Shown here one piece after another: positions 1,736 through 60,982 of a DNA stretch of 64,000 bases; positions within the stretch are counted from its first letter, which is position 1, and each line of letters starts with the position of its first letter. Origin of the DNA: Saprospiraceae bacterium (GTDB lineage: Bacteria > Bacteroidota > Bacteroidia > Chitinophagales > Saprospiraceae); contig JBEBHD010000001.1 in NCBI GenBank assembly GCA_040080915.1, forward strand, positions 83 to 64,082, in the 5' to 3' direction. The translations under genes and the position numbers were made by a program. Below the pieces are notes generated by a model, which was not told the DNA's origin, ran no database searches, and worked only from the letters and a program-made list of their open reading frames with translations.

Positions 1736-1750
1736 GGTATATCTTCAAAC

Positions 1751-4126
1751 CTAATTTTTCACTACTTTCTCAACCGCACTTTGCCTTCCCTCCGAGTGTA
1801 GCACCACCAGGTATAGGCCTGTAGGCAGTTCTTGCCCGAACCGAACCGTGCCCCGGTCGCTGCCCAAGGGTTGTACCAACATGGTCTGGCCCAGCAAGTT
1901 GCGCACGTCCAACGTGATGTTGTCAGCGCCCGGCCAGTCATAGCGCAGAGCAAAGTCGTCGCTCGACGGGTTGGGGGCGAGTGCGAGCACGGCTGTCGGG
2001 TCCGGTTCCGGAGCGGAAACCACGCCCGGTGTCACCTGGAACACATCCACGCCTGCCTCAACAAGGTGGCCGGGGGTGGTATCCGAGGCTACAAAAATGA
2101 TCTGCATATTGTTGGTCAGCGGAAGGTAGTCTTTCAGGTGAATATCGCCAGAAGACCGCCAAGCACTTCCCGAGGTTTCTTCGGTAAAAATGGTAACGGT
2201 CTGTTGTCCGTTGGTGGCCAGCACCTCGAATTTGTCGTTGGGCGTACCCGTGCCACCGGCGTTGAAAAACCAGTACTCGAATGTCAGTTTGGCATCGGCG
2301 TGGCCAGCCAACCGCATGACCGGGGACGCGAGCGTAACAGTGCCGTTGTCCACATCATCGGCACCGGCCTGGCCGCCGCCGTTGCCAGTGACGTAGCATT
2401 TGTCGCTGTTGTCGAAATTGACATCGTCGCCGGGGTTCGAGATTTGTTGCTGAAAAGTCGTTTGTACAGGATTGCCCCGTTCCCATAAGCCGTCAAGGGC
2501 AGTAGCCGTTTTGATCCAGCCGAGGTCAAGTTCGAAGTCGTCGTAATAGGCCGGATCGAGCGAAATAGTGGCCGGGCCGTCATTCGCCACGTTCAGGTCG
2601 GCTACCCGGTAGCCCCATGCTCCTACGCGGTAGTTGCCGCCAGCGAGGCATTCGAGGTCAAATTGGCCGTTGGCATCGGTCTGAACCTGGTAGTTCTGGA
2701 TCGGGCCGGAGATGGACACGGTCTTGTTTGCCAACACTGCACCCGATAGCTTGTCAACCGCTTTGCCTGTCAAATCAAATGCGGAAATGGGCTGTAGGAT
2801 TACGTTAAGAATGGTCACCTGCCCGGCCACGAGGTTCAGGTTGACAACCCCGTCAATGAATCCGGCTTTGCTGATGATGGCCTGGGCAGTACCCGTTTGG
2901 GCAAGCCCCGTTTTAAATGTGCCGTTGTTTTTGGTCAATTCCCGTGGCGAATAGGCCGTGCCGTTGATCCTGACCTCGGCCCCGGCGAGCGGCTGGCCGT
3001 TGCATCCGTTGAGAATTTGGCCCTCCACGTAACTGGCCCGCTTGTAGGTCGGAGTGAGGATGAAAAGTCGTCCGGTCCCGTTGCCGTTGGTCATGGGGAT
3101 GTTGGTGGCCAGCAGGTTGCCGGAAGGCAGGAACGGGTACACGCCCCAACAGCCGTCGAACGAAGGCCCGGTGCCAGTTGGCCAGGTGTCGTATTGGCCC
3201 ACCATGACCAAGTTTTCGGGGCGGCTTGCGTCCACGATGTTCAGACCGTCGGTGTACCAAGAGGTGACGGCCCAGTCGTTGAGGATGTGGGTGTTGTGGC
3301 CGATGGAGCCGTTGCCGTCATTGGTGGAGAAGCGGTCTAACTCCTTGATGTCGGTGGGGTCGCTCACGTCATAGGCGGTGAGGAAGGACGGCACGCGCTC
3401 GTCGGTGGTGAGCACGGTTTTGCGGTCGCTCAGAATCCAGGAATTGTGCGTGAACCGGGCAGGTGTCTCGACGCTGCCCAGCAAAACAGGATTGGCCTTG
3501 TCGCGCATGTCCACCACAGACATTCGCCCGGCGTTGATGTGGCAGGCGTAGAGCGTGTCGTTGTCCACAAAGCCGTCGTGGATGTAGCCCAACTGGTCAA
3601 ACAGGCCAACATAAGTCGGGTTGTACGGGTCAACATTCAGGTCATGTACGCGGGCGCTGCTGAAGATGCCGCCGTATGTGTACAGGTACCCCGTGGTCAC
3701 GTCAATGTGCAGGGCGTGAATGGCATCCAACTGGTCGAGGATATCGCCGGTGCCTTTGTAGTGGTGGTAGTTCAGATTAGGATTTGGCAGGTTACTCAGG
3801 TCAACGATCTGCACGCCGTCGCCACCCTCGGAGGTGACGTAGGCGTAGTGTTTGTACACTTTTATTTCTTTCCAAAGGTTGTCCGGGCCGGGTATCTGCA
3901 CGATCTGGACGGGGTTTGCCGGGTTGGTGACGTTGACGATGGAAAGGCCCTTGGACGCGCCGACCAGCGCGTATTCCTGCCCGTTTTGGGCGTAGCCGCA
4001 GATGTTGGCGAGGGTTTGGCCGGGATAGTCCAGCGTACCGCGCAGTTGGATATTGAAGTCTTGGGAAAAAAGTGAAGCGGAAGCAAGCACGAAAGCCAGA
4101 GCCGGAAGGAAGGATTGTTGTTTCAT
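1751..4126 (-). CDS. Secreted LVIVD-repeat / choice-of-anchor-B-like beta-propeller protein with Ig-like/carboxypeptidase-regulatory-like middle region and T9SS type-A C-terminal sorting domain
   Basis: Start chosen at MKQQSFLPALAFVLASASLFSQ (signal peptide, ATG complement ending at 4126). The longer ORF to 4408 overlaps the neighbouring gene. Propeller-like repeats (LSIVNVTNP, VQIVDLSNL, MSVVDMRD, LNIVDASRP). C-terminus LAPNPSSDDFALRY...GLYLVVLHSEGRQSAVEKVVKN resembles a Por secretion tail. Confidence 0.7.
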   Translation of the reverse strand: MKQQSFLPALAFVLASASLFSQDFNIQLRGTLDYPGQTLANICGYAQNGQEYALVGASKGLSIVNVTNPANPVQIVQIPGPDNLWKEIKVYKHYAYVTSEGGDGVQIVDLSNLPNPNLNYHHYKGTGDILDQLDAIHALHIDVTTGYLYTYGGIFSSARVHDLNVDPYNPTYVGLFDQLGYIHDGFVDNDTLYACHINAGRMSVVDMRDKANPVLLGSVETPARFTHNSWILSDRKTVLTTDERVPSFLTAYDVSDPTDIKELDRFSTNDGNGSIGHNTHILNDWAVTSWYTDGLNIVDASRPENLVMVGQYDTWPTGTGPSFDGCWGVYPFLPSGNLLATNIPMTNGNGTGRLFILTPTYKRASYVEGQILNGCNGQPLAGAEVRINGTAYSPRELTKNNGTFKTGLAQTGTAQAIISKAGFIDGVVNLNLVAGQVTILNVILQPISAFDLTGKAVDKLSGAVLANKTVSISGPIQNYQVQTDANGQFDLECLAGGNYRVGAWGYRVADLNVANDGPATISLDPAYYDDFELDLGWIKTATALDGLWERGNPVQTTFQQQISNPGDDVNFDNSDKCYVTGNGGGQAGADDVDNGTVTLASPVMRLAGHADAKLTFEYWFFNAGGTGTPNDKFEVLATNGQQTVTIFTEETSGSAWRSSGDIHLKDYLPLTNNMQIIFVASDTTPGHLVEAGVDVFQVTPGVVSAPEPDPTAVLALAPNPSSDDFALRYDWPGADNITLDVRNLLGQTMLVQPLGSDRGTVRFGQELPTGLYLVVLHSEGRQSAVEKVVKN

Positions 4127-4259
4127 GAAATCAAGGTCAGAAAAGTAGTGTGCTGGTGAAAAACGCGGCGAAGGTACACCTGCGCCGTGCGCGAAGAAGC
4201 CCGGGCGCAGCGCAAAACCAATATTGTCGGCTACTGGGCGACAGATGTGGGAGAAAAAG

Positions 4260-5138
4260 TCAGGCGCTCGCCCGTTTGTTGGAAATGTAGGCAAACAGGC
4301 AGGCTGTCCAAAACGAGTACAGGGAATACACCAAGGCGGGTTTGACCATTTCCTGATTGCCGAGCATGACACTGGCGATGAGAAAAGCCAGGGTAGTATT
4401 TTGCACACCGCACTCGATGGCTGCGGTCAGGCGCGAGGGATGTGCCTGGCCCATGTACCGAAGAAAATAGTACCCTGCGAACAAGCAGCAGGCATTTTGA
4501 ATCAGGGCTACCGGGGTGATGATCAAAAAGTCGGACCAGTCCAAACCTGCCCCGCCCTGTTTTTCACCGGCAAACATTTTCACCAAAAAAACTATGGCGA
4601 GCAGCACCAGCATGATGTACTTGGCCGGTTTGCTGATCAGCTGGGCATGGTACGGGAAGTAGTGCCGCATGGCCACGCCAAGCGAGGCCGGTATGACGGT
4701 GATGAAAAAAACCTGCTGCACCGTGTCCCAAAACGGCAGGTGCAGGTCCGTTTCGCGGCCCATGAAAATGCGCAGGGCAAGGTTGACCACCAGCGGGATG
4801 GAAAAAAGTGCGAGGATGCTGTTCACCGACGTGAGCGCCAGGGACAGGGCCACGTTGCCGCGCCAAATGTAGGTCAGATACCCGGAAGTGGCACCGCCCG
4901 GGCTGGCGCTCAGGATCAGGAACCCGACTTTAAGTACCGCAGGCAACGGAGCCACGAGGTTGATCAACAGAGCGATGACCGGTAGCCCCAGCATCTGGAT
5001 TCCCAAGGCTGAAAAAAACGCTTTCGGGTGGCGCACGATCCGGGCAAAGTCGCCAAATGTGAGCGACAATCCGACACCGAACATGATCATGCCGAGTACG
5101 AGACTGACAGCGAGGTCAATAACTTGAGTAGGCGCCAA
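4260..5138 (-). CDS. Bile acid:sodium symporter (BASS/SBF) family transporter
   Basis: 292-aa polytopic membrane ORF with an SBF-like N-terminus (LVLGMIMFGVGLSLTFGDF) and the motif ILSASPGGATSG. Confidence 0.85.
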   Translation of the reverse strand: MAPTQVIDLAVSLVLGMIMFGVGLSLTFGDFARIVRHPKAFFSALGIQMLGLPVIALLINLVAPLPAVLKVGFLILSASPGGATSGYLTYIWRGNVALSLALTSVNSILALFSIPLVVNLALRIFMGRETDLHLPFWDTVQQVFFITVIPASLGVAMRHYFPYHAQLISKPAKYIMLVLLAIVFLVKMFAGEKQGGAGLDWSDFLIITPVALIQNACCLFAGYYFLRYMGQAHPSRLTAAIECGVQNTTLAFLIASVMLGNQEMVKPALVYSLYSFWTACLFAYISNKRASA

Positions 5139-5349
5139 AGCGAGCAGGAGTGTTTAGTGGCGACAAAGGTATTGAACGCAAATCGTGGAAATGCAATACC
5201 AGTACCATTGTTGCAAGATTTATCCGGGTGTTTGGCAGGAATGTCCCAGACCTTGGCACCCGTGTCCGAGCCGTTCGAAAAGCGGTGCCCGCACCTTTGT
5301 GGCATCAAATTTTTCAAACAAACTCGTTCACCATCAAAATTGTCTTGCT

Positions 5350-5841
5350 ATGAAAATGCACTTGAATCTGATCATCGCCGCCTTGTTCACGGTTTTTGCC
5401 ACACGTACCGCCGCTGCGCAAACCTGCACGAAAACAACACCGGAGTCGCTGTCCGCAACTGAAATAAATGCCGCGTACACGCCCGGCGGCCTGCTGCTCA
5501 ATGCCGGTGGAACACGCCGCGTTATCGCCCGCCTCAGTATGGAAGGCACGCACACCATGCGCATGCAGTTGGCCAACTTGCAGGAGTACGCCACTGAAAT
5601 TGCGCTCGTGGCCCCCGACGGCAGCACGCGCTGGGAACAAAAAGTGGCCAATCAACCGGCGTTCGCCAAAATGCTAGACCTGCGGGCGCTGGCTGTAGAA
5701 CCGGGAACCTACGTCCTCCTCATCAAGGCCGGTGTAGCCACCCTTTCGCAAGAATTGATCGCCGGAAACAAAAGTGTTGCTTTCGGCAACTTACACCACT
5801 ATGCCGCCCCGGCCACGCCGGCAACAATGGCCGGAAAATGA
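5350..5841 (+). CDS. Hypothetical secreted protein
   Basis: Start placed at MKMHLNLIIAALFTVFATRTAAAQT (signal peptide). I recognise no family. The upstream part of the 5185 ORF looks non-coding. Confidence 0.45.
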   Translation: MKMHLNLIIAALFTVFATRTAAAQTCTKTTPESLSATEINAAYTPGGLLLNAGGTRRVIARLSMEGTHTMRMQLANLQEYATEIALVAPDGSTRWEQKVANQPAFAKMLDLRALAVEPGTYVLLIKAGVATLSQELIAGNKSVAFGNLHHYAAPATPATMAGK

Positions 5842-5923
5842 CCGGCAGCTCAAAATACTTCATACATTTGGCAGGGCTGGTCGCAACGATCGGCCCTGTT
5901 TGTGTCTCGAATCGCAACAGGTT

Positions 5924-6013
5924 TTCACCACAGATTCACACAGATTCACCACAGATTTTTCTCCTTCTTACTTAGAGCGTGTTTAAATTTCAGTGCGAAT
6001 CTGTGGTAAAAAA
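5924..6013. repeat. Composite intergenic repeat: CACAGATT word cluster, a solo copy of the MITE terminal repeat, and an inverted AATCTGTGG word
   Basis: 5924-5960 is ttcaccacagattcacacagattcaccacagattttt. 5974-5995 is agagcgtgtttaaatttcagtg, one mismatch from the 21-bp terminus of the element at 15830-15990. 5995-6013 is gcgaatctgtggtaaaaaa. Lies 60 bp upstream of the HTCS start at 6073. Confidence 0.8.
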
Positions 6014-6072
6014 TAGTTCGCCGAGGCGTACCCTAAATAGCGACCCTGAACCGCTACTAAAACGAAAAATTC

Positions 6073-9000
6073 ATGCCAGTCCGAATAACACTACTCCCGC
6101 TGCTGCTCGCCCTTGTCGTGTCCGGCCCGGCTCAGAACCTGCGGGACTTCCATCCCCGATTTGAGTCGTTCAGCCTGCCGGGCGAGATTATGGGAAACTA
6201 TGTGCAGTGCATCGCTCAGGACTCTCTCGGTCTTTTGTGGTTTGCCACCCAGGACGGCCTCCAACGTTACGACGGGCGCAGCCTGACCACCGTTTATCAC
6301 GACCCATTGCAGGACAACTCCCTGATCGGCAACTCCGTGCAGTGGATTTGTGTAGGCAATGACGGCATGCTTTGGCTGGCTGACTACGGCAAGGGACTCA
6401 CCCGATACGACCAGTCATCGGGTTTGCATTACCGCTACAAACACGATCCAAATGACCCGAACAGCCTGAGCAGCGACACGGTTTCTATGGTCGTGCAGGA
6501 TCGGGCGGGATTCGTGTGGGTGGGTACGCACCGGGGCCTGAATCGCTTGGACCCCAAGACCGGAAAAGTCAAACGCTTTTTTTCCGACCCCGCCAACCCG
6601 CACAGCCTGAGCGCCAACTTAGTGCGGGCGCTCTATGTGGACCGGCAGGGCACGCTCTGGGTCGGTTGCGGGTTCCCGTGGGACGAAACGGACCCAACCG
6701 GCAAAACCGGCGGCCTGAACCGCTACCACCCCGATTCCGAAACATTTACCCGCTACCTGCACGATCCCGCTGACCCCAACAGCCTCGCCGACAACCGCGT
6801 GCGGGCCTTGTTCGAGGATTCCCGTGGCAATTTTTGGGTGGGAACAATCGGCAGCCACGGCCTGCAGCACCTCGACCGAAAAACGGGCCGGTTCGAGCGG
6901 CTGCCGCCCGCCCCGGACAAACTCGGCACGCCCTTCCTTCGGGACAAGGTATTCGCTCCGCAAACCTTTCAGCAGGTTTTGTCCATACTTGAGGATCGGA
7001 ACGGCTGGCTGTGGATCGGGTCCATGTCGGGTTTGGAGATTTACGACCCGGCCACTGGCATCGTCCGGCATTTTGAAATGAGCAAGCAGCCGGGCAGCAT
7101 TCCCATAAATTTTTTGTGGAACCTCTGCCTCGCCCGAGATGGTACCGTGTGGGCTGGTGGAGGCATCACAGGAGGCATGGCGTTGAAAATTTCCGCCAAA
7201 ACCCAATTGTTCACCTTGCACGAAACGGGCAACCTGTTGGCCTACATTCGAACCGTGCATGAAGATGCCCAAGGCAATATTTGGTTGGGCGGCGATGACC
7301 CAACTCCGAACAGGTTAGTACGAGTTGACCGAAAAACCGGCCAAAAAACACTCGTTGTTTTTGAAAAAGAAGCCCGTACAACCGGTGGTGGCGGTAATAT
7401 TTTCACCATTTGGCCAGACCCGGACGGCGATTTGTGGCTCTGCACCGGAAACGGGCTTTACCGCTTCAATCCCAAAACAAACACCACGGTGCAACGCTAC
7501 CGCCACGACCCGAACGACCCCAACAGCCTGGCGACAAGTTTTGTGACCAATATTCTGAAAGACCGGCGCGGCTACTACTGGGTCACCACTTGGGGCGGCG
7601 GGCTGAATTGCCTCGATCCAAAAACGGGCAAATTCAAACGCTTTTTGCACCACCCGGCGACCCCCCGCAGTATCAGCGGCAACCAAACCATTGGTTTGTA
7701 CCAGGACAACCAAGGCCACATCTGGGTAGGCGGAGGCGTACAGCCGGGTGACGATGTCGCTCTTCAGCCAATGTTTTTGGATCGCCTTGACCCAAATACA
7801 GGGCAATTCACGCACTTTTTTTCCAAGGACGAGCGCGGGTGCGCGGGCACGATCACCGGCGACGGCGAGGGCAATATTTGGGCATTGACCCTGATCCAGG
7901 GGTTGATCAAACTGAACCCCGCCACCGGGCAGATGAAAAAGTACACCTCCGCCAACAGCGGTATCCCGACCAACTACGTGCGCTCCTTGGTCAGGGCCAG
8001 AAACGGCAAAATGTGGATGACCACCGACCACAAGTTGGTTGAGTTTGACCCCAAGAGCGAATTCTTTTACACCTACGACATTTTCCGGGGCATCAAAACC
8101 TGCGAACTGGCTTTCCTGTCCATCCATGTTGCCCAAAATGGCGAGATACTTTTCGGCGGCAATGGCGGATTTATCACGTTTTTTCCCAAAAACACCGCAC
8201 AAGCGGGAATCGGAACCGGTCCTGATATCCAAATCGTCGGCTTCAAATTGGCCAACGAACCGATCCTGCCCGCCCCCGGCTCCATCCTCCAGCAGCCCAT
8301 TTGGGAAACATCCGAAATCCGCCTTGCCCACGACCAAAACGTGTTCGCCTTCAACCTGGCCTGCTTCGACTACCAAAACCCGGAGGGCAACCACATCGAG
8401 TTTATGCTCGAAAACTACGACAAAAACTGGCGAAACGACCTGCGCGACGGGGAAATAGCCTACTTCAATGTGCCGCCGGGCGAATACACGTTCCGGGTGC
8501 GCGGTACTAACGGCCTCGGTATTTGGAACGAAACGGGCACGAGCATCCTGGTTACGGTAAGCCCCCCGTGGTGGCAAACACTCTGGGCTTACCTCGTCTA
8601 TCTCGCTCTGGCAGGCGGTATTGCCTACGGGGTTTACCGTTTTTTGCTCAACCGGCGACTCGCCCGCGCCGAGGCCGAGCGCCTTCTGGAACTTGACACC
8701 GTCAAAACCCGACTGTACACCAACATTACACACGAGTTTCGCACCCCGCTTACCGTCATCTCCGGCATGGCCGACCAAATCCGCGAAAACCCGACGGCAT
8801 GGTTGGACGAGGGCACCAAAATGATCCAGCGAAACAGCAACCGCCTGCTTGATCTGGTCAACCAGATGCTCGACCTCGCCAAATTGGAAGGCGGGAAAAT
8901 GGCCCTGCATATACAGCAGGGCGATGTGGTGGGCTACCTCAAGTATTTGGTGGAAAGTTTTCACTCATTTGCCCAAAGCCGGGGCGTTCAGATACATTTC

Positions 9001-10350
9001 CTTTCCGATGCCGAAACGCTCGAAATGGGCTTCGACCCCGAACGCCTCCAGCAAGTGGTGGGCAACCTGATCTCCAACGCCGTCAAGTTCACGCCCTCCG
9101 GCGGCCACGTGTACGTGGACTTGCGTTTGACTACCGACCAGCCCACGAAACGCCTCCCGCTCGGCCAGCAGCACCTCGTCGTTCGCGTGCGCGACACCGG
9201 CACCGGCATACCCGAAGAACACCTGCCCTACATTTTCGACCGGTTTTACCAAGCCCCCGCCGTTCATTCCGGCTCGGAAATCGGCAGTGCCGACAGTTCA
9301 TACCGAGCCGAGGGCGGCACCGGCATCGGTCTGGCGCTTACCAGAGAGTTGGTCAAACTGATGGGCGGCGACATAGCGGCCAAAAGCCAGTCCGGCAAGG
9401 GCGCGGAGTTCATCGTCACCCTTCCGATTCCTGTCGCCGAGCCGCAATCCAACAGCCAGCGGTTGGAAAGCGAGCCGGACTACCCGGCGTTTTCGTTTGA
9501 AAACCAAACCGAAACAGCGGCCTCGGCTACCAGCCCGCCGCTGCCTGCCAACCGACCGGCACCAATCCACGCCCCCCTCATCTTGCTGGCCGAGGACAAT
9601 CCCGACGTGGTCACCTATCTGGCTTCCTGCTTAGCGGGCGAATACCGCCTCGCCGTGGCCAAGGACGGTCAGGAAGCCATCGAAATCGCCTCGGAAACCG
9701 TGCCCGACCTGCTCGTGACCGACGTGATGATGCCCCGCAAGGATGGCTTCGAGGTTTGCCGTACCTTGCGCACCGATACCCGGACGAGCCATATCCCCAT
9801 TGTCATGCTCACGGCCAAGGCCGACATGGACAGCAAACTCGAGGGCTTGGAACATGGTGCCGACGTGTACCTCGCCAAGCCGTTCAACAAGGAGGAACTA
9901 CGCCTGCGCATCCGCAAACTGCTCGAAATGCGGAAAAACCTCCAACAACACTACCTCGCCGCCGCAGGGCTGGCCGAGGGCGCGGTGTTGCCCCGCGACC
10001 TGCCCGCCATTCCCGGCGAGGAAGACCGATTCGTACGCAAGGTGCGCGAGATCGTGGACGCGCACCTCGACGACAGCAACTTCGACGTGGAGCAGCTCTG
10101 CCGCGCCATGGCCATGAGCCACTCCCAATTGCACCGCAAACTATCCGCGCTGACAGGACTTTCAGCCACGAAATTCGTCCGCCACATCCGGCTGAGCAAG
10201 GCCAAGGAAATGCTCCGGGACTCGAACCTGACCATCGCCGCCGTCGCGTACGACACCGGATTCACCGACCCCAGTTATTTCGGTCGTGTGTTCCGGCAGG
10301 AGTTAGGCCTGTCGCCGCAGGAATGGCGCGAGCGGGTTTATCAGAACTAA
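6073..10350 (+). CDS. Hybrid two-component system protein (HTCS-1): periplasmic two-component-regulator propeller repeats + Y_Y_Y, TM, HisKA/HATPase, REC, AraC-type HTH
   Basis: Signal/TM N-terminus. Repeated WFATxxGLxRYD-type propeller motifs. YTFRVRGTN (Y_Y_Y). H-box ITHEFRTPLT. GTGIGLALTRELV (G2 box). REC (LLAEDNPD...LVTDVMMPRKDG...LTAK). C-terminal AraC HTH (GFTDPSYFGRVFRQELGLSPQEWR). Confidence 0.9.
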   Translation: MPVRITLLPLLLALVVSGPAQNLRDFHPRFESFSLPGEIMGNYVQCIAQDSLGLLWFATQDGLQRYDGRSLTTVYHDPLQDNSLIGNSVQWICVGNDGMLWLADYGKGLTRYDQSSGLHYRYKHDPNDPNSLSSDTVSMVVQDRAGFVWVGTHRGLNRLDPKTGKVKRFFSDPANPHSLSANLVRALYVDRQGTLWVGCGFPWDETDPTGKTGGLNRYHPDSETFTRYLHDPADPNSLADNRVRALFEDSRGNFWVGTIGSHGLQHLDRKTGRFERLPPAPDKLGTPFLRDKVFAPQTFQQVLSILEDRNGWLWIGSMSGLEIYDPATGIVRHFEMSKQPGSIPINFLWNLCLARDGTVWAGGGITGGMALKISAKTQLFTLHETGNLLAYIRTVHEDAQGNIWLGGDDPTPNRLVRVDRKTGQKTLVVFEKEARTTGGGGNIFTIWPDPDGDLWLCTGNGLYRFNPKTNTTVQRYRHDPNDPNSLATSFVTNILKDRRGYYWVTTWGGGLNCLDPKTGKFKRFLHHPATPRSISGNQTIGLYQDNQGHIWVGGGVQPGDDVALQPMFLDRLDPNTGQFTHFFSKDERGCAGTITGDGEGNIWALTLIQGLIKLNPATGQMKKYTSANSGIPTNYVRSLVRARNGKMWMTTDHKLVEFDPKSEFFYTYDIFRGIKTCELAFLSIHVAQNGEILFGGNGGFITFFPKNTAQAGIGTGPDIQIVGFKLANEPILPAPGSILQQPIWETSEIRLAHDQNVFAFNLACFDYQNPEGNHIEFMLENYDKNWRNDLRDGEIAYFNVPPGEYTFRVRGTNGLGIWNETGTSILVTVSPPWWQTLWAYLVYLALAGGIAYGVYRFLLNRRLARAEAERLLELDTVKTRLYTNITHEFRTPLTVISGMADQIRENPTAWLDEGTKMIQRNSNRLLDLVNQMLDLAKLEGGKMALHIQQGDVVGYLKYLVESFHSFAQSRGVQIHFLSDAETLEMGFDPERLQQVVGNLISNAVKFTPSGGHVYVDLRLTTDQPTKRLPLGQQHLVVRVRDTGTGIPEEHLPYIFDRFYQAPAVHSGSEIGSADSSYRAEGGTGIGLALTRELVKLMGGDIAAKSQSGKGAEFIVTLPIPVAEPQSNSQRLESEPDYPAFSFENQTETAASATSPPLPANRPAPIHAPLILLAEDNPDVVTYLASCLAGEYRLAVAKDGQEAIEIASETVPDLLVTDVMMPRKDGFEVCRTLRTDTRTSHIPIVMLTAKADMDSKLEGLEHGADVYLAKPFNKEELRLRIRKLLEMRKNLQQHYLAAAGLAEGAVLPRDLPAIPGEEDRFVRKVREIVDAHLDDSNFDVEQLCRAMAMSHSQLHRKLSALTGLSATKFVRHIRLSKAKEMLRDSNLTIAAVAYDTGFTDPSYFGRVFRQELGLSPQEWRERVYQN

Positions 10351-10402
10351 AAAATGTGCTGGTATTTTTCATTCTGCCTACATTTGTCAAAAAGAAACAA
10401 GA

Positions 10403-11020
10403 ATGCCTACTGAAGCAATGGTGTCCAATCCTCTGGCGGTACTGAAACCCCAAAAAGCGGTGCGGCTGTACACCCTGGAGGAGTATCTCCAGCGGGAGGC
10501 CCGTTCGGTGGACAAACACGAATATTTCAACGGAAAAATAACCAAAATGCCCTACGCCCGAGGACCGCACAACGAAATCGCCGCCAACATCATCGCCGCC
10601 TTCAAAACGGCGTTCAAGCAATTGGACAAAACCTACCGGATATTCGCTTCCGATCAGAAAATCTATTTCCCGGAACTGAACTACGGCGTGTATGCCGACA
10701 CTCTGGTCGTGTGCGAGGAACCTGCGTACTTCGACAATGGGGAACTCCTGTTGACCAATCCGCTGATTGTGGTGGAAGTGTTGTCAAAAAGCACACAGGT
10801 ATATGACCGGGCTGGCAAATTCGAGGAGTACAAAACCCTGCCTGCTTTCCGGGAATACGTGTTGGTGCGGCAGGACAAATACGAAGTGGAAACCCGTTTC
10901 CGCGAAGCGCCCGATCTGTGGCGCGAAACCCGCACGACCGACCTGAATGCCGCTTTCCCGCTGCGGGCCGTGGGCTGCTCGATTGGGCTGCGGGATGTGT
11001 ACGAGCACATTGCCCTTTGA
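10403..11020 (+). CDS. Uma2-family (DUF820) PD-(D/E)xK endonuclease, intact
   Basis: 205-aa ORF with the Uma2 layout: YTLEEYLQ...HEYFNGKI..MP..RGPHNEIAANI, then DQKIYFPE....YADTLVVCE and LIVVEVLSKST...D...KFEEY. Its stop codon lies 3 nt before the start of the next gene. Confidence 0.8.
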   Translation: MPTEAMVSNPLAVLKPQKAVRLYTLEEYLQREARSVDKHEYFNGKITKMPYARGPHNEIAANIIAAFKTAFKQLDKTYRIFASDQKIYFPELNYGVYADTLVVCEEPAYFDNGELLLTNPLIVVEVLSKSTQVYDRAGKFEEYKTLPAFREYVLVRQDKYEVETRFREAPDLWRETRTTDLNAAFPLRAVGCSIGLRDVYEHIAL

Positions 11021-11023
11021 GAC

Positions 11024-13705
11024 ATGCCCAATCCATCCATTTTCATCAGTTACCGCAATGCCGATGCCTACTCGGAGGCGCGGCAATTGTACACAGACTT
11101 GGCAAACCGCTACGGAGAAGACGCGGTTTTTTGGGACAAAAAACGCCTCGAATCGGGCGACGACTGGCCCGCTGAACTGGAGGCAAACGTCCGATTGGCT
11201 GCAGTACTGCTCGTCCTGCTCAAGGACGAAGCCAAATGGTTGGGTGTCGAACGCCTCGGCGGCAGGCGCCTGGACAACGCCGGCGACTGGGTGCGCCGCG
11301 AAATTGAAACCGCTTTAGCCGACAAAAACAAGCGCATCGTGCCTCTGTTGGTGGACGGCGCCGGGCTGCCCACAGAAGAGCATTTGCCGAAGGAAATACA
11401 TGAACTGCTGGCCAAACAGGGCCGGAAAATCGCCACCGACAAGTGGGACTCCGACCTCGCCGCGCTGTTTGCCGACCTTGAAAAACACGGCTTCCAACCC
11501 CGCCCCGGCACCTCCCTCGACCCGCTTGCCGACTACCCGCTGCCCGACGACGTGCCCGACCCGCGCGACCACCACGCGGCCCCCTTCCTCGGCCTGCGCT
11601 ACTTCGACGAGACGGCGGCAAGGCTGTTTTTCGGGCGCACCCGCGAATTGCTGGAGTTTTTCAGCCTCGTCGAAAATCCCGAGATACGCCTCGTCAGCCT
11701 GTTCGGCCACAGCGGCGTGGGCAAATCGTCCTTCCTCGCAGCCGGCGTGTTGCCGAGGCTCCGCGCCATCGGCACGCCGCACTACACGCGCCGCGACAAA
11801 ACCGCGGCCCGGGGCCTGGCTACCCAACTGGATGCCCAGCGCGAACGGCCCAAGATGCCCGGCCAACCGCCCGTGTACATCCTCGATCAGGTGGAGGAAA
11901 TGTTTGCCGACCCGCTGCCCGGTGAACGAGAGGCGTTCCTGCAGCGCCTGCGCGCCGCCCTACAGGAAGAACCGGAGACTACGCTCGTGCTCGGTTTCCG
12001 CAGCGAGTACCTGCTCGACCTGTCCGATCTGCTCGCCCGGGTGGACTGCCGGCAAGAATCACTTCCGCTGCGCCCGCTCGGGCAGCCGGCCCTCATGGAG
12101 GCCATCGAGGGCGTATGGCGCGACCCCGTCCTGAAAAACCGCTACCATCTCGATCTGGAGAACGGCTTTGCCGCCTTTGTGGCCCGCAACCTCATGCATA
12201 CCGAGAGCGGCGGCGCGGCGGCCATCCTGCAAAACCGCCTGTTGAAACTGTACGAGCAGGCCCGCGCCTCCCGCACGCCCGCCAACCTTCTGGCGCGGCT
12301 CGCCATCGCCGATTACGATGAACTGCTCCGGCACTCCACGGCCGAAAAGGAACTGCTCGACTTTCAGGTACAGCGCCTGCGCACCGAAATGGGCATCGCC
12401 GCCGACGACCGCAGCCTGTACGAGGCCCTCAACCACTTTGTGGTGGACAAGGCCACCGCGGGCACCTTGCCCAAGAGCAAACTGCCCGACGACACGCACA
12501 ACCTGCACGCCGCCCTGCGCCGCGTGAACCTGCTGACCGAACTGCCTGAAAGTGAGGCCCTGCGCCTGTCGCACGACCTGCTGGCGCCCGTGGTGCGCGA
12601 GCGGTACCAGCAGGCACTGCTGAATGAAACCGAGCGACTCGAAATCGAAAACGTACGCTTGCGTTTGCAGGAAATCCGCAAACAACTGGTCAACATTGAG
12701 TTTGAAAATGCGCTGGAAGGTTTAAAGACAGCCGCCTTGCGCAACGTTGTTCCAAATGAAATCTGGCCCGTAGCCTTCGAACTGGCGTTTGTTTTTTTGC
12801 AGGCTGGACGCCGCGATTCTGGTACCTACGCCCTGATCGAATGCGCCAACCATCTGGATTTTGCCGAAAAACTGCGCCCGCCCTTCCCCGACATCACCTT
12901 CCCAGACGGCCGCGACTGCCCCGCACTGCTCGACTTCCTGCGCCGCTGCGAACCGGCCCTGTACATTCAACTGAAGCACCGCTATTTCCCGACCATGATT
13001 CCCATCGAAGGCGGGACCTTCGAGATGGGCAATGTGTTGGCGGACTTGGGGCGCGACAATGAAACCGTGCACGCCGTCACCCTTTCCGGCTATGGTCTGG
13101 CCGAAACGCCGACAACCTGGCAACAGTACGGGCTGTACTGCCTGACCACCGGTACCGAAGTCCCGAATGACTCTGGTTTTGGGCGGGGGGAACGCCCGGT
13201 CATCAATGTCAGTTGGAAAGACGCGGCGGCGTATGCAGCCTGGTTGGCGAAACACAAAGGTGATCGGTACCGCCTGCCCACCGAAGCCGAATGGGAGTAC
13301 GCGGCCCGCGAGTGCGGCAAGCCTGTGCGTTTCGGCAACGGAAAAAATATGGCCGATAGAGGGGAGATGAACTACGGTACATCGGAGTATGATTTAGAGC
13401 CGTATCAAGTCATCGAAGGTGAATACAGGGAAAAAACCACATCGGTACGTTTGTTCGCCCCCAATGCCCTGGGGCTGTACGACATGAGCGGAAACGTGTG
13501 GGAATGGTGTGGCGATTGGTACGGTGAGTACCCCAAAGCGGCGCAAACAAATCCGACTGGGCCGAAGGCAGGCTCGTTCCGCGTGCATCGAGGCGGCTCG
13601 TGGTATCACCCTGCGTTTACCTGCCGCGTGTCGACGCGCAACTACTGGCCGCCGTTTAACTGGGACTTCGCTCACGGCTTCCGCGTGGCTTCTTCCTCGC
13701 TGTGA
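11024..13705 (+). CDS. TIR domain / STAND (nSTAND1-like) P-loop NTPase / helical region / C-terminal FGE-sulfatase (SUMF1)-like domain protein; candidate conflict/defence effector-sensor
   Basis: TIR (aa ~5-155): IFISYRNAD...DWVRREIETAL, with a candidate catalytic Glu at codon 93 (nt 11300-11302). STAND N-terminal signature PFLGLRYFDETAARLFFGRTRE. Walker A GHSGVGKS (nt 11705-11728). Walker B-like VYILDQVEEMF (about nt 11885). FGE-like domain (nt ~12992-13693): IEGGTFEMG, INVSWKDAAAYAAWL, YRLPTEAEWEYAAR, GLYDMSGNVWEWCGDWY, HRGGSW, GFRVA. Confidence 0.85.
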   Translation: MPNPSIFISYRNADAYSEARQLYTDLANRYGEDAVFWDKKRLESGDDWPAELEANVRLAAVLLVLLKDEAKWLGVERLGGRRLDNAGDWVRREIETALADKNKRIVPLLVDGAGLPTEEHLPKEIHELLAKQGRKIATDKWDSDLAALFADLEKHGFQPRPGTSLDPLADYPLPDDVPDPRDHHAAPFLGLRYFDETAARLFFGRTRELLEFFSLVENPEIRLVSLFGHSGVGKSSFLAAGVLPRLRAIGTPHYTRRDKTAARGLATQLDAQRERPKMPGQPPVYILDQVEEMFADPLPGEREAFLQRLRAALQEEPETTLVLGFRSEYLLDLSDLLARVDCRQESLPLRPLGQPALMEAIEGVWRDPVLKNRYHLDLENGFAAFVARNLMHTESGGAAAILQNRLLKLYEQARASRTPANLLARLAIADYDELLRHSTAEKELLDFQVQRLRTEMGIAADDRSLYEALNHFVVDKATAGTLPKSKLPDDTHNLHAALRRVNLLTELPESEALRLSHDLLAPVVRERYQQALLNETERLEIENVRLRLQEIRKQLVNIEFENALEGLKTAALRNVVPNEIWPVAFELAFVFLQAGRRDSGTYALIECANHLDFAEKLRPPFPDITFPDGRDCPALLDFLRRCEPALYIQLKHRYFPTMIPIEGGTFEMGNVLADLGRDNETVHAVTLSGYGLAETPTTWQQYGLYCLTTGTEVPNDSGFGRGERPVINVSWKDAAAYAAWLAKHKGDRYRLPTEAEWEYAARECGKPVRFGNGKNMADRGEMNYGTSEYDLEPYQVIEGEYREKTTSVRLFAPNALGLYDMSGNVWEWCGDWYGEYPKAAQTNPTGPKAGSFRVHRGGSWYHPAFTCRVSTRNYWPPFNWDFAHGFRVASSSL

Positions 13706-13856
13706 GGTGGATGTCGTTCGGCCAATGGTGTGTACTCTACGTTTTGTCACCTCGAAGAGGCCCGTCCGCGCTATGGTGGGTAGCGTACTTGTTAAGCGGA
13801 CGGGTTTCATTCTGTTTTTCAACATCGTACCTTTGCCTCCACAAAATACACGCCGC

Positions 13857-14072
13857 ATGAACACAGTGCCAGTGCATCCACCATTCACCAACCTTCAATT
13901 GGAAATACTCAAGTTATTTGCCCGGCAATTGCCGGACGCGGACTTGTTGGCTATTCGGGACATGATTGCCCGGTATTTGCTGGAAAGAGCACTTTTGGAG
14001 GCCGACAAGGCTTGGAATGAAAAAGGCTATACAGTAGAATCCTTCCAGCAAAACGTGCATGAAAAGTCCTGA
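13857..14072 (+). CDS. Small helical protein, putative antitoxin partner of the downstream PIN toxin
   Basis: 71-aa ORF (MNTVPVHPPFTNLQLEILKLFARQL...). Its 3' end overlaps the PIN gene start by 14 nt. I recognise no family, so the antitoxin call rests on position only. Confidence 0.45.
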   Translation: MNTVPVHPPFTNLQLEILKLFARQLPDADLLAIRDMIARYLLERALLEADKAWNEKGYTVESFQQNVHEKS

Positions 14073-14484
14073 AAAACTGCGCCTCGTATTCGACACGAAT
14101 GTGGTACTGAATGCATTGTCTCCAAAATTACCCTTTCGAAGTGTGTTGCAGGAGGTGATCGCCGGGCGGCATCACTTATGTGTTACCACCGAAATCCTGC
14201 TCGAATACGAGGAAAAAATATCGGAGTTTTATAGCCCGTCAACGGCCACTCTTTTACTTGATGCCTTGGCCGTTTCAAATCATGTCATCCGCTCCGAGGT
14301 TTTCTATCGCTTCAACTTGCTTGAGGATGAGGATGACAACAAATTCATTGACTGTGCATTTGCGGCAAATGCGCACTACTTGATTTCTGACGACAAGGGC
14401 TTCAGGATGCTGGAAACCGTGGGGTTTCCCAGAATTGAATGGCTGACCTTGAAGAGGTGGCATGAGATTTTGCAGGAAACGTAA
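14059..14484 (+). CDS. PIN-domain toxin (putative toxin-antitoxin system toxin, PIN family)
   Basis: 141 aa with the PIN acidic residue pattern: LVFDTNVVLNAL, TTEILLEYEEK, DEDDNKFIDCAFAANAHYLISDDKGF. Confidence 0.8.
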   Translation: MKSPEKLRLVFDTNVVLNALSPKLPFRSVLQEVIAGRHHLCVTTEILLEYEEKISEFYSPSTATLLLDALAVSNHVIRSEVFYRFNLLEDEDDNKFIDCAFAANAHYLISDDKGFRMLETVGFPRIEWLTLKRWHEILQET

Positions 14485-21782: not shown

Positions 21783-24700
21783 ATGAAAGTCTGTATCCGT
21801 ACATTACTGCTCGCTGGCCTGTTTCTGCTTGGCATTTTTCCCCTCAATATCGCTAACGCCGCACCGGCAGGATGCCCTTCCGGCAACCCTGAGACCACCG
21901 TTGTTCCCCCCATTCTGATAACCTACACCTGGACCGGCACCGTGAGCACCGACTGGCACGACCCCTTCAACTGGTCGCCCATGGGTACGCCCCTGTCCGG
22001 GAGCCTTGCGGGCGACGACGTGGTGATCCCCGTCGTGGTCAGTGGGAACTACCCCGTTGTCATGGCCTCTGCCCGCGCACGCTCCATCAGCATCGCCTCC
22101 GGTGCTTCGCTGACGGTAAACGTGGGCGGCACCCTGAACGTAATCGCCAGCACCACCGACGGCGTGACCAACGCGGGCACACTGACCAACAACGGCACCA
22201 TGCGAGTGGACTCGTCCGCCAACGACGGCATCGTGAACCAGCTCAACGCCCTGATCTCCAACTCGGGCAGTCTGCTCATCATTGAAGGCGCGGGCAACCG
22301 CCTGGAAAACTACAGCACGGTGACCAACACCGGCGGCACGTTCACCGTGGACGGCGGCCTCGGCATCGGCCTGATCAACCACCCCGGCGCCACGATCACC
22401 AACTCCGGCGGCACCTTCCGGGTGCAATACGGCACCAACCAGCGTGTGGACAACTACGGCACCATTACCAACTCGGCCACTTTTACCATTGATGGCGCTT
22501 CTGCCGGGACGGGCCTGATCAATAGGGCCAACGCCAGCATCGCCAACAATGCCGGAACATTTAAGGTGCAATTCGGCACCGACAGGCGCGTGGACAACTA
22601 CGGCACCATCAGCAACTCGGCCACCTTTACCATTGACGGCGCTTCTACTGGCGAAGGTTTGATCAACCGGGCCAACGCCAGTATCACCAATAACGGCGGC
22701 ACGTTCACCGTGTCTGGTGGAACTGCTACACTCGTGGACAACTACAGCACCATCACCAATGCGGCTACCTTTAGAATCAATGGCTCTGGCGGCGGGCCGC
22801 TCCTGATTAACAGAACAGGTGCCAAGGCACTGAACAACACCGGGACTTTTTCCGTGGGGGCAGGCACCACTACCTTAGTGGAAAACGATGGCAGGATCGA
22901 AAACAACGGCACCTTTTCCATCGAGAACACCGGTGGAAGTGAAACCTTGGTGAACCGCGACTCGGTGATCAACAAAGCAGGCGCGACGTTCAATGTGCAA
23001 TTCTCTACCGGGCGCATCTTGAAAAACTCGAAATACGTAGGTAACTCCGGTACGATGAACCTCCAAAACGCAATATCTTCCGGCTTCCCCGAGCTCGTTA
23101 TAAACGACCAAGATGCCGTCATTTTCAACGACAATGGCGCTGTGCTGTACATGGGCAATACCGGTGCTAATCAGCAGATATTCAGCAACCACGGAACATT
23201 TCAAAACAACGGAAAGGCATCCTTAATTGCGTGCAGAAGCAAGGCCCTCTACAACTCGGGCACCGGGGTGGTGGACGTACAGGATTCGTTAGGAATAAAT
23301 AGCATTGGTGGCCAGGCCGTCACGAACGAGAATTCGTTCACACTCGGCGCGAACGGCAAATTAAGCATCGGAAACAACATTGGCGGCGGCGGGATCAAAA
23401 ACAGTGCCTTGTTTGTGAGCAACATCGGTTGCCGGCTGTCCACCGGTACCATGACCGGTAGCGCCATCACCAACGATGCCGGTGCTGTGTTCACCAACAA
23501 TTGTGCGACCACTATTTTACAAGCTAATCCAGACAGGATCGCAAACAACGGACACTACACCCACCTGAACGGCAGTATGACCCTGACCGGTTTTGGCATG
23601 AACAGGTTTATGGGCAATAACGGATACGCCGAGATGAACATACCTTTTTATATTGACGTAGTCGTAGCCAACTATTTTTACAACTCCGATACCCTGATTC
23701 TCGGCGACCAATGCATTTTCCCGCATCGAACGGGCATCAATCGGGTATTCGAAAACACGGCAGGTGCCTACCTGTACTCCGATGCTGAATTCAGTTTCCA
23801 AAGCATGAATAATTTCCTGGACAACAAAGGCAAAGCCATTCTCGGGCCGAGTTCAACGTATTTGGGCCGCAATTTGTCTATCACGAATGTGATCGCCAAC
23901 ACCGATTCGCTTTTTCTGCAAGGAACGATCGAGATAAGCCGCTTTTATGGATATGGCATCCAAAACACCGGGTACACCGAAAATTCCGGCTCCTTTTTCA
24001 GCAACTATACCGGCAATGGCATTTTGAACGACGGCGGCACATTCGTTAACTCCGGTTCGCTGCGCCTGGACTCCATAAGCAACAGTGGCCTGCTGCTGCA
24101 AGGGGCGCAAACGTTTACCAACACCTCCAGCGGGACGATCTCCACGTCGGTCGTTATGTCCAACAGCATCAAGAACGAAGCCGGTTCGTTCCTTAACGAA
24201 GGCGAAATCGAACTCGGCGTTCGGGACAGCATGGGGAATACGGGTATTTATAACCAGGCCCAGTTTACCAATAAAAACCTGATCACCATCGGTGGCGACG
24301 GCGATGTGATTGGCCAGAACGGCATTCAAAATGCTGGCGGCGGCAACCTCCTCAATCGAGGCACCATCAATATCGGAACCGGCACAGCCGTATTTCTCGG
24401 CGATGGCATTCACAACCAAGAGACCTTCACCAACGACTACTGCGCCGAAATCAACCTGAACGACAACCTGAATAACTCCGGCACCTTCGACAACAACGGC
24501 GTGCTGAACATCAACACCAACCAGGTGCATACGAACTCGGGCACCTTCACCAACCGCGGCACCGTCAACTTCCTGCAGCCGGGCAGCATCCCCGGACTGA
24601 TCAACGACCCCTTTGTGCTGACCTGCCCCGACGACCAGACCATCTGCCAGTACGCATCTGCGCTCGACCTAAGCACACTGAGCGCCAACCCAAGCGGCGG

Positions 24701-26720: not shown

Positions 26721-26739
26721 TTCAGTTCAGACTATTCAA

Positions 26740-26981: not shown

Positions 26982-31088
<4,107 letters not shown>

Positions 31089-39671: not shown

Positions 39672-39682
39672 GTGCGCGCCTT

Positions 39683-39730: not shown

Positions 39731-39737
39731 GGGGCAC

Positions 39738-60942: not shown

Positions 60943-60982
60943 TCTTTTTATCCGTACGGCATGGCCTATATTTGCGGCCACC

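Follow-up and report, generated by a model that had tools for sequence, protein, structure and literature searches.

A TIR-nSTAND1-lectin protein of a Saprospiraceae bacterium as a predicted NLR-like sensor with a recombinant sensor half and an adjacent, lineage-specific Uma2 gene

The 893-aa protein encoded in the 64-kb stretch of Saprospiraceae DNA analysed here (hereafter, the window) is, in the reading that we favour and regard as fairly probable, a self-contained cytoplasmic NLR-like STAND sensor that has been diversified by recombination, with the Uma2 gene upstream of it being a captured add-on that it does not require. Of the elements of this reading, the analyses show the domains with their conserved catalytic residues, the pattern of synteny, a signal of recombination and the lack of a DGR encoded in cis. 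The initial annotation of the locus had described an effector, a switch and a sensor in one chain, and both that logic and the domain calls beneath it stand, whereas its proposals of a two-gene system with Uma2 and of a defence island do not; a novel Uma2 partnership in such an island was mostly not borne out. The features on which our analyses drew are listed in Table 1.

Table 1. Features of the Uma2/STAND locus and its downstream neighbours (positions are those of the window).
Feature	Position	Strand	Details
Bacteroidota-type -7 promoter-like box TACATTTG (TAnnTTTG)	10379..10386	+	pattern search
Uma2 ORF	10403..11020	+	205 aa; NCBI MEQ1743788.1
Uma2/STAND junction TGA-GAC-ATG	11018..11026	+	Uma2 stop, 3-nt spacer, STAND start
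TIR-nSTAND1-FGS ORF (FGE-fold lectin, STAND/NLR-like)	11024..13705	+	893 aa; NCBI MEQ1743789.1
TIR domain	11039..11371	+	residues 6-116; Pfam TIR_2 E=3.2e-12, 47.5 bits vs cut-off 28
nSTAND1 P-loop NTPase	11582..12391	+	residues 187-456; Pfam PF20703 E=6.3e-25, 89 bits vs cut-off 27.1
Approximate recombination breakpoint	12290..12440	+	Nei-Gojobori by segment, 150-nt identity profile
All-helical region, NTPase to lectin domain	12392..12988	+	residues 457-655; AF2 secondary structure, pLDDT
FGE-sulfatase/FGS C-type-lectin-fold domain	12989..13690	+	residues 656-889; PF03781 E=3.8e-47, 161 bits
Region equivalent to DGR variable repeat (RGGSW...GFR)	13589..13684	+	residues 856-887
TAccTTTG box ahead of 71-aa ORF	13828-13835		pattern search
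71-aa ORF, presumed antitoxin	13857..14072	+	overlaps PIN gene by 14 nt; no family match
PIN_3 toxin-like protein	14059..14484	+	141 aa; Pfam PIN_3 E=3.2e-15

Domain architecture of the 893-aa protein

Profile searches for Uma2, TIR_2, nSTAND1 and FGE-sulfatase, which the initial annotation had suggested as a check on its domain calls, all gave matches above the Pfam cut-offs. The TIR domain has the W89xxxE93 motif, within DWVRRE93IETAL (E93 codon, 11300-11302), so that the Glu reported at codon 93 is indeed in the WxxxE position. E93 aligns with E642 (DWVHKE642IVTAL), the catalytic residue of SARM1, and is invariant in 51 of 51 full-length homologues; moreover, the top PDB sequence matches of the domain are the TIR domains of SARM1 (E=2e-5). 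We predict that the TIR domain is an NADase with a SARM1-type Glu. The nSTAND1 pattern that had been noted for the central NTPase is likewise complete, with the lead-in motif P187..FFGR205, a Walker A motif (GHSGVGKS, residues 228-235; K234 codon, 11723-11725) and a Walker B motif (LDQVEE, with D288/E291/E292, within LDQVEEMF at residues 287-294) all present, and residues G228-S236, K234, D288, E291 and E292 are invariant in the 51 full-length homologues. Structure prediction and Foldseek, also suggested earlier, gave an AF2 model of the protein with a pLDDT of 90, the N-terminal two-thirds of which match the resistosome core of the plant TIR-NLR RPP1 (7dfv_A, E=2.8e-10). The Pfam search of the helical region found no family beyond the nSTAND1 model.

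The C-terminal domain is an FGE-sulfatase domain, as had been called, with Foldseek matches to human FGE (E=1e-16, TMt 0.71), TvpA (2y3c, E=3e-15) and PvdO in addition to its Pfam match. The reference for the catalytic Cys pair of FGE was C336/C341 of the human enzyme, which bind Cu, and GGSFLCHESYC of the T. curvata enzyme. Aligned to 5nxl/6s07 with HMMER, the window protein lacks this pair, the first Cys being deleted and the second aligning to Thr (GGSWY-HPAFTC--R vs GGSFLCHESYCNRYR in the alignment to T. curvata FGE from the PDB), and the sole Cys kept relative to true FGEs in that motif is the downstream structural Cys. Since the catalytic pair is missing, the domain is probably a non-catalytic binding module. 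Its sequence and fold do strongly resemble those of FGE, PvdO and the C-domains of EgtB, and the NCBI name of the protein, 'SUMF1/EgtB/PvdO family nonheme iron enzyme', agrees with a regulated enzyme that has a catalytic FGE-like domain and no role in immunity. That such an enzyme is encoded here appears to us hardly credible, given the loss of the Cys pair and the scores of the NCBIfam enzyme equivalogs, all of which were far under their cut-offs for the 893-aa protein (e.g., 75 vs 360 bits for EgtB). In addition, the fusion to TIR and STAND domains, the swapping of effectors and sensors, and the targeting by DGRs in relatives point to a binding role. About 65 homologues have the same TIR-nSTAND1-FGS architecture, and in more distant nSTAND1 relatives both the effectors (CHAT, trypsin) and the sensors (WD40) are swapped, a modularity which is typical of conflict systems.

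Diversification of the sensor half

Comparison of the window gene with its counterpart at locus L094 revealed two segments with different histories. On the 5' side of the breakpoint dS is 0.34-0.60, whereas on the 3' side, from about residue 450 on, synonymous sites are saturated (pS 0.87-0.91). The closest relative of the 893-aa protein differs by segment, making it a mosaic, and in the loci L082 and L083 the TIR domain and flanks are near-identical and the remainder is divergent. The sensor half appears to have been diversified in the window lineage by recombination between alleles or paralogues, and not by a cis-encoded DGR. This mosaicism had not been remarked upon when the locus was first annotated.

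Variability in the family is greatest over the last ~50 residues and in the stretch equivalent to a DGR variable repeat (VR), which has 31-47% identity to relatives. Searches of the 64-kb window found no repeat of 13200-13720 that could serve as a template repeat (TR), no TR/VR pair in an adenine-mismatch scan that was positive for the controls, L088 and L099, and no ORF with an RT motif or a Pfam RT match. Similarly, the seven closest relatives had neither TR nor RT in the ±8-10 kb around them. Adenine-specific TR/VR pairs do occur in two more distant members, at the corresponding C-terminal position: in L099 a textbook TR lies between two targets, and in L088 the TR is 3'-truncated. The window stretch was tried as a VR of the recovered TRs and rejected, as identity at non-A positions was 0.68-0.74, the level of ordinary homology, vs 0.96 in a true pair. 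The DGR connection of the STAND-FGS family is a further point that the earlier description did not contain.

The pairs in L099 and L088 and the variability of the C-terminus would suit a gene that is targeted by a DGR in trans, its RGGSW...GFR stretch being hypermutated from a TR elsewhere in the genome, as would the many NNC/NNT codons at positions equivalent to Asn in the TR; for systems of this kind the RT may sit 'elsewhere in the genome' (PMC8195603). We consider targeting in trans improbable. Apart from the negative searches and the ordinary-homology fit to the recovered TRs, the differences between L082 and L083 in this stretch fall on all codon positions, unlike the pattern left by a DGR, the truncated TR of L088 suggests decay of the DGR in the lineage, and G+C-rich codon usage alone also predicts the NNC/NNT bias. 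Recombination is the preferred account of the sensor half, and the pattern across the family is one of a conserved effector head with a recombining or hypervariable sensor tail, some members having a DGR and one a decayed TR. The combination of a conserved head with tails varied in these ways suggests that receptors of a single family can be diversified by alternative routes.

The Uma2 gene and its neighbourhood

Both ORFs were found where they had been placed by the initial annotation, with the reported 3-nt spacer between them. They share a reading frame, and the window junction recurs unchanged at the second paired locus (L094 and L089). The sole TAnnTTTG box on the + strand ahead of the STAND gene is located 17 nt 5' of the Uma2 ATG, within a block (GTTTTTCATTCTGCCTACATTTGTCAAAAAGAAACA) that is conserved in L094 and at which homology with that locus begins, and the STAND gene itself has none. 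The box is a putative promoter, and the 3-nt gap, the conserved junction and the single box lead us to predict that the two genes are co-transcribed. The shared frame, with only TGA GAC between the ORFs, would also accommodate a single gene, by TGA read-through or recent fission, whose product would be a nuclease-TIR-NTPase-lectin protein with two effectors; PD-(D/E)xK effectors are common at the N-terminus of STAND defence proteins. The likelihood of this appears very small, as the stop codon is kept in both divergent loci, a fused homologue was not found among the homologue matches, and the STAND start, Met-Pro-x-Pro-Ser, is the same in all homologues without Uma2.

The call of a Uma2 domain is upheld by a full-length match to Pfam Uma2 (PF05685; E=3.4e-27, 95 bits vs cut-off 27), matches to the four models of the PADLOC candidate PDC-S03 (E=3e-20), a match to PDB entry 9y1l (E=7e-5) and retention of the core residues E40, H56, D99, E125, S128 and K129, of which E40, D99, E125, S128 and K129 are conserved in 105-121 of 121 sequences. 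The proposal that Uma2 and the STAND protein form a two-gene system, and the accompanying suggestion that their adjacency may be conserved across genomes, fared less well. The genes are adjacent at just two independent loci, that of the window and that of L089/L094, counted once because these are the same locus at 99.6% nucleotide identity. Uma2 is absent next to the STAND gene in about 15 other loci of the family (L081-L088, L096-L104), including the 70%-identical L081. Furthermore, the closest orthologues of Uma2 beyond the paired loci (L090-L093; 85, 80 and 79% identity) are solitary amid housekeeping genes, and no Uma2-STAND fusion was found among 165 and 414 homologues. The Uma2 gene is a lineage-specific add-on and not a conserved partner. 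Most likely, its product is an independently acting predicted nuclease, a PADLOC candidate for single-gene defence, that was captured into the operon and is not a required component.

Uma2 has co-diverged with the TIR-NTPase 'head' in two genomes, as Uma2, TIR and NTPase have similar dS values between the window and L094, and Uma2 is under purifying selection (dN/dS = 0.15, Nei-Gojobori). Because the predicted operon is tight, its junction is conserved and Uma2 and the head have co-diverged, a genuine partnership within the subclade would fit too, in which Uma2 would work with the TIR-STAND-FGS protein, either as an obligatory second effector that cleaves DNA or in a regulatory role. The position of the one promoter-like box upstream of Uma2, the match to PDC-S03 and the extent of homology between the window and L094, which is confined to 10362..13705 with both flanks unrelated so that the boundary of the module is that of the pair, also speak for it. 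Against these points stand the synteny pattern described above, the nature of Uma2 as a bare 205-aa nuclease core without a signal-sensing domain, and the behaviour of the Uma2 family, which is multi-copy and lands within unrelated operons (PMC9403480, PMC4963859, PMC3424549); on balance, a required partnership is unlikely. Also unlikely is that Uma2 and the TIR and nSTAND1 head are a co-inherited dual-effector module, in which the activated STAND oligomer would license Uma2 as a second output and onto which interchangeable helical and lectin cassettes would have been recombined. If true, this would represent an NLR-like receptor that is re-targeted by swapping sensor cassettes through recombination, independently of a DGR.

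A PIN toxin-antitoxin pair is present downstream, in agreement with the initial annotation, consisting of the PIN_3 protein (NCBIfam TIGR00305, 44.6 bits vs cut-off 29.15) and the small overlapping ORF before it. This pair is the only such element adjacent to the locus, and the remaining 64-kb window, with its housekeeping enzymes, hybrid two-component regulators, T9SS cargo proteins and one Hcp, is not defence-rich, contrary to the defence-island context that had been envisaged.

Proposed function

The reading of the 893-aa protein as effector, switch and sensor fits its SARM1-type Glu, its invariant NTPase motifs and an FGE fold that lacks the catalytic Cys pair. We infer from this architecture that it may sense a ligand, oligomerise, produce an NADase output and serve in immunity. 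Its non-catalytic FGE-fold lectin domain would bind a ligand derived from an invader, freeing the nSTAND1 NTPase for NTP-dependent oligomerisation; the oligomer would then gather the SARM1-like TIR domains into active NAD+-cleaving sites, and their activation would cause NAD+ depletion or release a TIR-derived signal, with abortive infection or death of the cell as the outcome. Proteins of the TIR-STAND-lectin type are predicted to be the bacterial equivalents of NLR or antigen receptors, and the window locus, being DGR-free, of one or two genes, with intact catalytic residues and a high-confidence AF2 model, represents a compact candidate for experiment.

Comparison with known systems

The window TIR domain retains the catalytic motif of the SARM1 TIR NADase, including its Glu (DWVhkE-I-TAL), although overall identity is only about 25-30% (E=2e-5), and SARM1 is controlled by ARM and SAM domains whereas the window TIR is joined to a STAND NTPase. 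The window Uma2 protein has a full-length match to the Uma2 family (DUF820, TT1808; PF05685), with a conserved PD-(D/E)xK-type core, and also matches PDC-S03. Members of that family are usually solitary and multi-copy, whereas the window copy shares a predicted operon with a STAND gene. With Avs/AVAST proteins and plant TIR-NLRs (RPP1, PDB 7dfv) the 893-aa protein shares the order of effector, NTPase and sensor in one chain, and presumably the logic of ligand-induced oligomerisation activating an N-terminal effector. It differs from them in that its NTPase is of the nSTAND1 clade and its sensor is a lectin fold and not TPR or LRR repeats; in PADLOC, no Avs or other system model matched the protein, and its TIR domain had weak matches to Aga_TIR (E about 1e-3).

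Surveys of FGE-like domains in NTPase conflict systems, to which the initial annotation had alluded, do exist. Doré et al. (PNAS 2024, e2316469121, PMC10907252) described CLec proteins with nSTAND1 or NACHT as 'antigen sensors' that are targets of clade-5D DGRs, stating that these putative sensors, often DGR-diversified, are experimentally uncharacterised. The window protein resembles those targets, some of which have a TIR or peptidase N-terminus, in that its STAND NTPase carries a CLec/FGE-fold domain at the C-terminus, and the TR/VR pairs of its relatives L099 and L088 lie at this same position; it differs in the lack of a detectable TR, VR pair or RT in the 64-kb window or near its seven closest homologues, and in diversification that looks recombinational. 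The class of effector-nSTAND1-FGS proteins, TIR versions included, was predicted computationally by Kaur, Iyer, Burroughs & Aravind (eLife 2021;10:e70394, PMC8195603), who proposed FGS (PF03781) as the sensor of invaders, nSTAND1, along with NACHT and MNS STAND modules, as the central NTPase and TIR as one of the N-terminal effectors, and found NTPase-FGS systems to be enriched in filamentous or multicellular bacteria. That paper stresses DGR components and multiple EAD-linked effectors, neither of which is present at the window locus, and mentions Uma2, which lies upstream here, 0 times. The three-part architecture is the same, however, and Saprospiraceae fit the filamentous or multicellular enrichment. 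As the class has already been described in these two studies, the 893-aa protein represents a further member of a known predicted class.

Domain architecture and predicted activities of the two proteins

The Uma2 and STAND genes lie where the initial annotation had placed them, with a 3-nt spacer between the open reading frames, and both proteins are represented at NCBI from a Saprospiraceae MAG. The four domain calls made for the pair were upheld by profile searches in which every match exceeded its curated Pfam cut-off: Uma2 in the small protein (E=3.4e-27) and TIR_2 (residues 6-116, E=3e-12), nSTAND1 (residues 187-456, E=6e-25) and FGE-sulfatase (residues 656-889, E=4e-47) in the large one. 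The motifs quoted for the STAND protein were also found in its sequence, and E93, Walker A residues G228/G231/G233/K234/S235/S236 and Walker B residues D288/Q289/E291/E292 are invariant across 51 aligned full-length homologues. An AlphaFold2 model based on that alignment was of high confidence, with a mean pLDDT of 90 and every segment at 50 or higher, and its Foldseek matches were of two kinds. The C-terminal domain matched FGE from human and bacteria (E=1e-16, TMt ~0.7), as well as PvdO and TvpA (2y3c, E=3e-15), the variable protein of a diversity-generating retroelement (DGR), while the N-terminal two-thirds matched the resistosome core of the plant TIR-NLR RPP1 (7dfv_A, E=2.8e-10), with a poor global superposition that is expected since the chain is multi-domain.

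Features of the window and of the loci compared with it
Locus	Feature	Position	Strand	Details
Window	Uma2 ORF	10403..11020	+	205 aa; NCBI MEQ1743788.1
Window	STAND ORF	11024..13705	+	893 aa; NCBI MEQ1743789.1
Window	TAnnTTTG box	10379-10386		
Window	TGA-GAC-ATG junction	11018-11026		
Window	Homology with L094	10362..13705		
Window	TA genes beside STAND	13857-14484		PIN_3 pair
L094	TA genes beside STAND	4315-5006		DUF433 + DUF5615
L082	TA genes beside STAND	7631-7879		DUF433
L083	TA genes beside STAND	3531-4125		small ORF + PIN
L096	TA genes beside STAND	325-579		UPF0175
Window	Giant-protein cassettes	6073-10350, 21783-31088, 37407-43858, 47320-64000		
Window	Peptidase_S74 protein	33712-37398	+	1228 aa
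Window	Hcp homologue	45801-46436	-	T6SS_HCP, E=1.6e-29
L084	AbiGi + EAD11-TIR genes	1048-2728		
L086/L087	Tandem array	3793-13659		
L099	DGR	1760-6027		TR 2909-3038
L088	VR	10565-10654		
L088	TR	10886-10975		

The TIR domain looks competent as an NADase. In the PDB its sequence is closest to the TIR domains of SARM1 (E=2e-5), and DWVRRE93IETAL of the window protein aligns with DWVHKE642IVTAL of SARM1, placing E93 opposite E642, the established SARM1 catalytic Glu. The FGE-like domain, by comparison with known enzymes, is most likely a non-catalytic binding module of lectin fold, because the catalytic Cys pair is absent and none of the NCBIfam enzyme equivalogs EgtB, SenA, PvdO and GldK comes near its cut-off on the STAND protein. 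Alignment by HMMER with FGEs of T. curvata and Streptomyces pairs GGSWY-HPAFTC--R with GGSFLCHESYCNRYR, the first catalytic Cys being deleted and the second standing opposite Thr. The NCBI name of MEQ1743789.1, 'SUMF1/EgtB/PvdO family nonheme iron enzyme', is misleading. The Uma2 protein matches PDB 9y1l and retains E40, H56, D99, E125, S128 and K129, which are kept in 105-121 of 121 family members. It also matches the PADLOC candidate PDC-S03 (E=3e-20), for which literature searches gave no papers.

Uma2 as a probable lineage-specific operon partner

About 65 database proteins, nearly all from Saprospiraceae MAGs or metagenomes, have the full TIR-nSTAND1-FGE architecture, with identities to the window protein that range from 72% to 30%; in remoter nSTAND1 relatives the heads are replaced by CHAT or trypsin and the tails by WD40. 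A profile search of contigs with the full-length STAND alignment returned mostly lone FGE domains, covering the NTPase only in L028 and L055, and was unusable for synteny.

The initial annotation had viewed the pair as a candidate two-gene conflict system. Adjacency and a tight junction were borne out in two independent loci, the window and that of its closest homologue, L094, where a 205-aa Uma2 gene also stands 3 nt upstream (72% identity for STAND, 90.7% for Uma2); L089 has the same arrangement, although it counts as one locus with L094 since the two are 99.6% identical over 2.9 kb. Homology between the window and L094 opens at a conserved block with a promoter-like TAnnTTTG box of Bacteroidota type and closes at the STAND stop, both flanks being unrelated. 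The junction is identical in both paired loci, neither of which has such a box directly before the STAND ATG. Comparison of the window with L094 gives a dN/dS of 0.15 for Uma2, indicating purifying selection, and a Uma2 dS (0.34) close to the values for the TIR (0.44) and NTPase (0.60) segments. Together, the shared boundaries, junction, single upstream box, purifying selection and similar dS argue for co-transcription and co-inheritance of the two genes. The two ORFs are in-frame with each other, parted only by TGA GAC, and as the second paired locus also keeps the TGA stop, read-through or gene fission is unlikely.

A conserved, obligate Uma2-STAND system is not supported by the wider family. 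Uma2 is missing beside STAND in L081 (70% identity to the window STAND protein), L082 (67%), L083 (66%), L084 (61%), L085 (57%), L086/87 (50%, two tandem paralogues) and L088 (43%). It is also absent beside STAND in the metagenome loci L096-L104, where the upstream genes encode a UPF0175 antitoxin, FGE-domain proteins, an integrase fragment, DUF4231 and an acyl-CoA dehydrogenase. Conversely, the Uma2 orthologues that share 85%, 80% and 79% identity stand alone among housekeeping genes. One of them derives from a JGI sample that also yielded a STAND orthologue without Uma2, and no fusion occurs among the homologue search matches of either protein. Published work treats the Uma2/DUF820 family as uncharacterised and multi-copy, and reports it also inside unrelated operons beside toxin-antitoxin (TA) modules (PMC9403480, PMC4963859, PMC3424549). 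Because of these solitary orthologues, Uma2-less loci, absent fusions and multi-copy nature, we conclude that Uma2 would be a lineage-specific operon partner rather than a defining component; the link is real locally but shallow. Uma2, presumably co-expressed, probably acts independently as a nuclease, although it is possibly an accessory effector in this subclade.

Genomic setting

The PIN toxin-antitoxin pair noted downstream of the STAND gene is a PIN_3 TA module that adjoins the Uma2-STAND pair, but the proposed defence-island context was not found, as the rest of the 64-kb window is not defence-rich by Pfam content and is no defence island. It encodes an aldo-keto reductase, transporters, a MurJ-like flippase, nucleotidyl- and glycosyl-transferases, AIR-synthase-like and GluRS-like proteins, and several giant HYR_4C/T9SS cargo proteins, each adjoining a hybrid two-component/AraC regulator. 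This cassette occurs at least four times, pairing a secreted protein of 754-1762 aa (HYR_4C repeats and a Por_Secre_tail T9SS signal) with a ~1400-aa regulator (Reg_prop/Y_Y_Y/HisKA/HATPase/receiver/AraC-HTH), which suggests paralogous sensor-cargo modules. An isolated Hcp homologue has no other T6SS genes recognised nearby, and a 1228-aa protein has, near its C-terminus, a domain of the Peptidase_S74 family (endosialidase/tail-fibre intramolecular chaperone), which is reminiscent of phage tail fibres but lies in a chromosomal setting.

In five loci, TA-type genes of differing families are immediate neighbours of the STAND gene, which seems to inhabit small variable TA-rich spots, not classic defence islands. 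The setting of L084 is more defence- or MGE-like than that of the window, with AbiGi and EAD11-TIR genes ~5 kb from its STAND homologue P0007 and Bro-N and DUF6575 genes immediately downstream.

Variation of the sensor half

The sensor half bears signs of recombination. Which relative is nearest to the window protein depends on the segment: L094 in the TIR and NTPase segments, L081 in the helical region and L082/L083 in the FGE domain. When the window is compared with L094, synonymous sites reach saturation on the 3' side of residue ~450 (pS 0.87-0.91), against dS 0.34-0.60 upstream. L082 and L083, which are syntenic, have flanks of 93-98% identity and a TIR pS of ≈0.05, whereas beyond the TIR the STAND gene has pS 0.27-0.73 and its last 53 residues are 50% identical. 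A crude estimate gave no sign of positive selection in the C-terminus (dN/dS 0.25-0.29 for window/L094 and L082/L083). Since dN/dS is below 1 throughout, we claim exchange of the sensor half between alleles or paralogues, and no demonstrated positive selection.

The window has no DGR in cis. No template repeat (TR) was found in it by low-stringency blastn or by a generic scan for TR/variable repeat (VR) pairs, defined as imperfect repeats with ≥80% of mismatches at adenines of one copy. The scan picked up positive controls in lone-FGE loci from the contig search and flagged two STAND-family members, L099 and L088, with no pair in the window or its seven closest relatives. No reverse transcriptase (RT) was detected in the window by Pfam on all large ORFs, and a six-frame Y[x]DD scan matched only a GluRS-like ORF. 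L099 has a textbook DGR, in which one AAC-rich TR lies between two target genes, for an FGE-domain protein and a TIR-nSTAND1-FGE protein, and two VRs have identical 3' ends, one being at the 3' end of the latter gene; its 7-kb contig has no RT. In L088 the TR, with adenine-specific mismatches to its VR, lies just downstream of the TIR-nSTAND1-FGE gene. As it lacks the 3' part due to match the VR end, and no RT occurs within 8 kb, this may be a decaying DGR relic.

Residues 856-887 of the window protein were rejected as a VR of the recovered TRs (non-A identity 0.68-0.74, versus 0.96 in a true pair), and the fit appears to be ordinary homology. As for a codon footprint of past DGR activity, the window C-terminus has many NNC/NNT codons at TR-Asn-equivalent positions, which G+C-rich codon usage would also predict. 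The L086/L087 element, which bears RteC, HTH_17 and rve integrase genes, carries a tandem array made up of two FGE-only genes (528 and 451 aa), two 885-aa TIR-nSTAND1-FGE paralogues and a gene for an EcoRII-C nuclease; neither a TR/VR pair nor an RT was detected in the array, and a repeat search at L086 returned conserved FGE motifs and no TR.

Relation to known systems

Potentially, the lectin-fold domain binds an invader ligand, upon which the nSTAND1 NTPase would oligomerise in an NTP-dependent manner and the clustered TIR domains would cleave NAD+, leading to growth arrest or cell death. The locus represents a compact, DGR-free test case for a predicted class of bacterial NLR-like receptors.

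Computational surveys of FGE-like domains in NTPase conflict systems, mentioned in the initial annotation, do exist. Kaur, Iyer, Burroughs and Aravind (eLife 2021, PMC8195603) described 'STAND NTPase-FGS' proteins whose N-terminal EADs or effectors include TIR, DRHyd, calcineurin, caspase and trypsin, and proposed direct binding of invader molecules by the FGS. Doré et al. (PNAS 2024, PMC10907252) reported DGR-driven diversification of the CLec domains of nSTAND1/NACHT proteins, some of which begin with a TIR or peptidase domain. Because these studies cover such architectures, the 893-aa protein is a further member of a class so far described computationally; PADLOC has no model for the class and gave no system-level match for the STAND protein. 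Overall, the initial interpretation is supported in its domain calls and its effector-switch-sensor reading, but not in the Uma2 two-gene system or the defence island. Uma2 is mentioned in neither study, and the Uma2 gene beside the STAND gene is a feature by which the window locus differs from the STAND NTPase-FGS proteins as described (PMC8195603).
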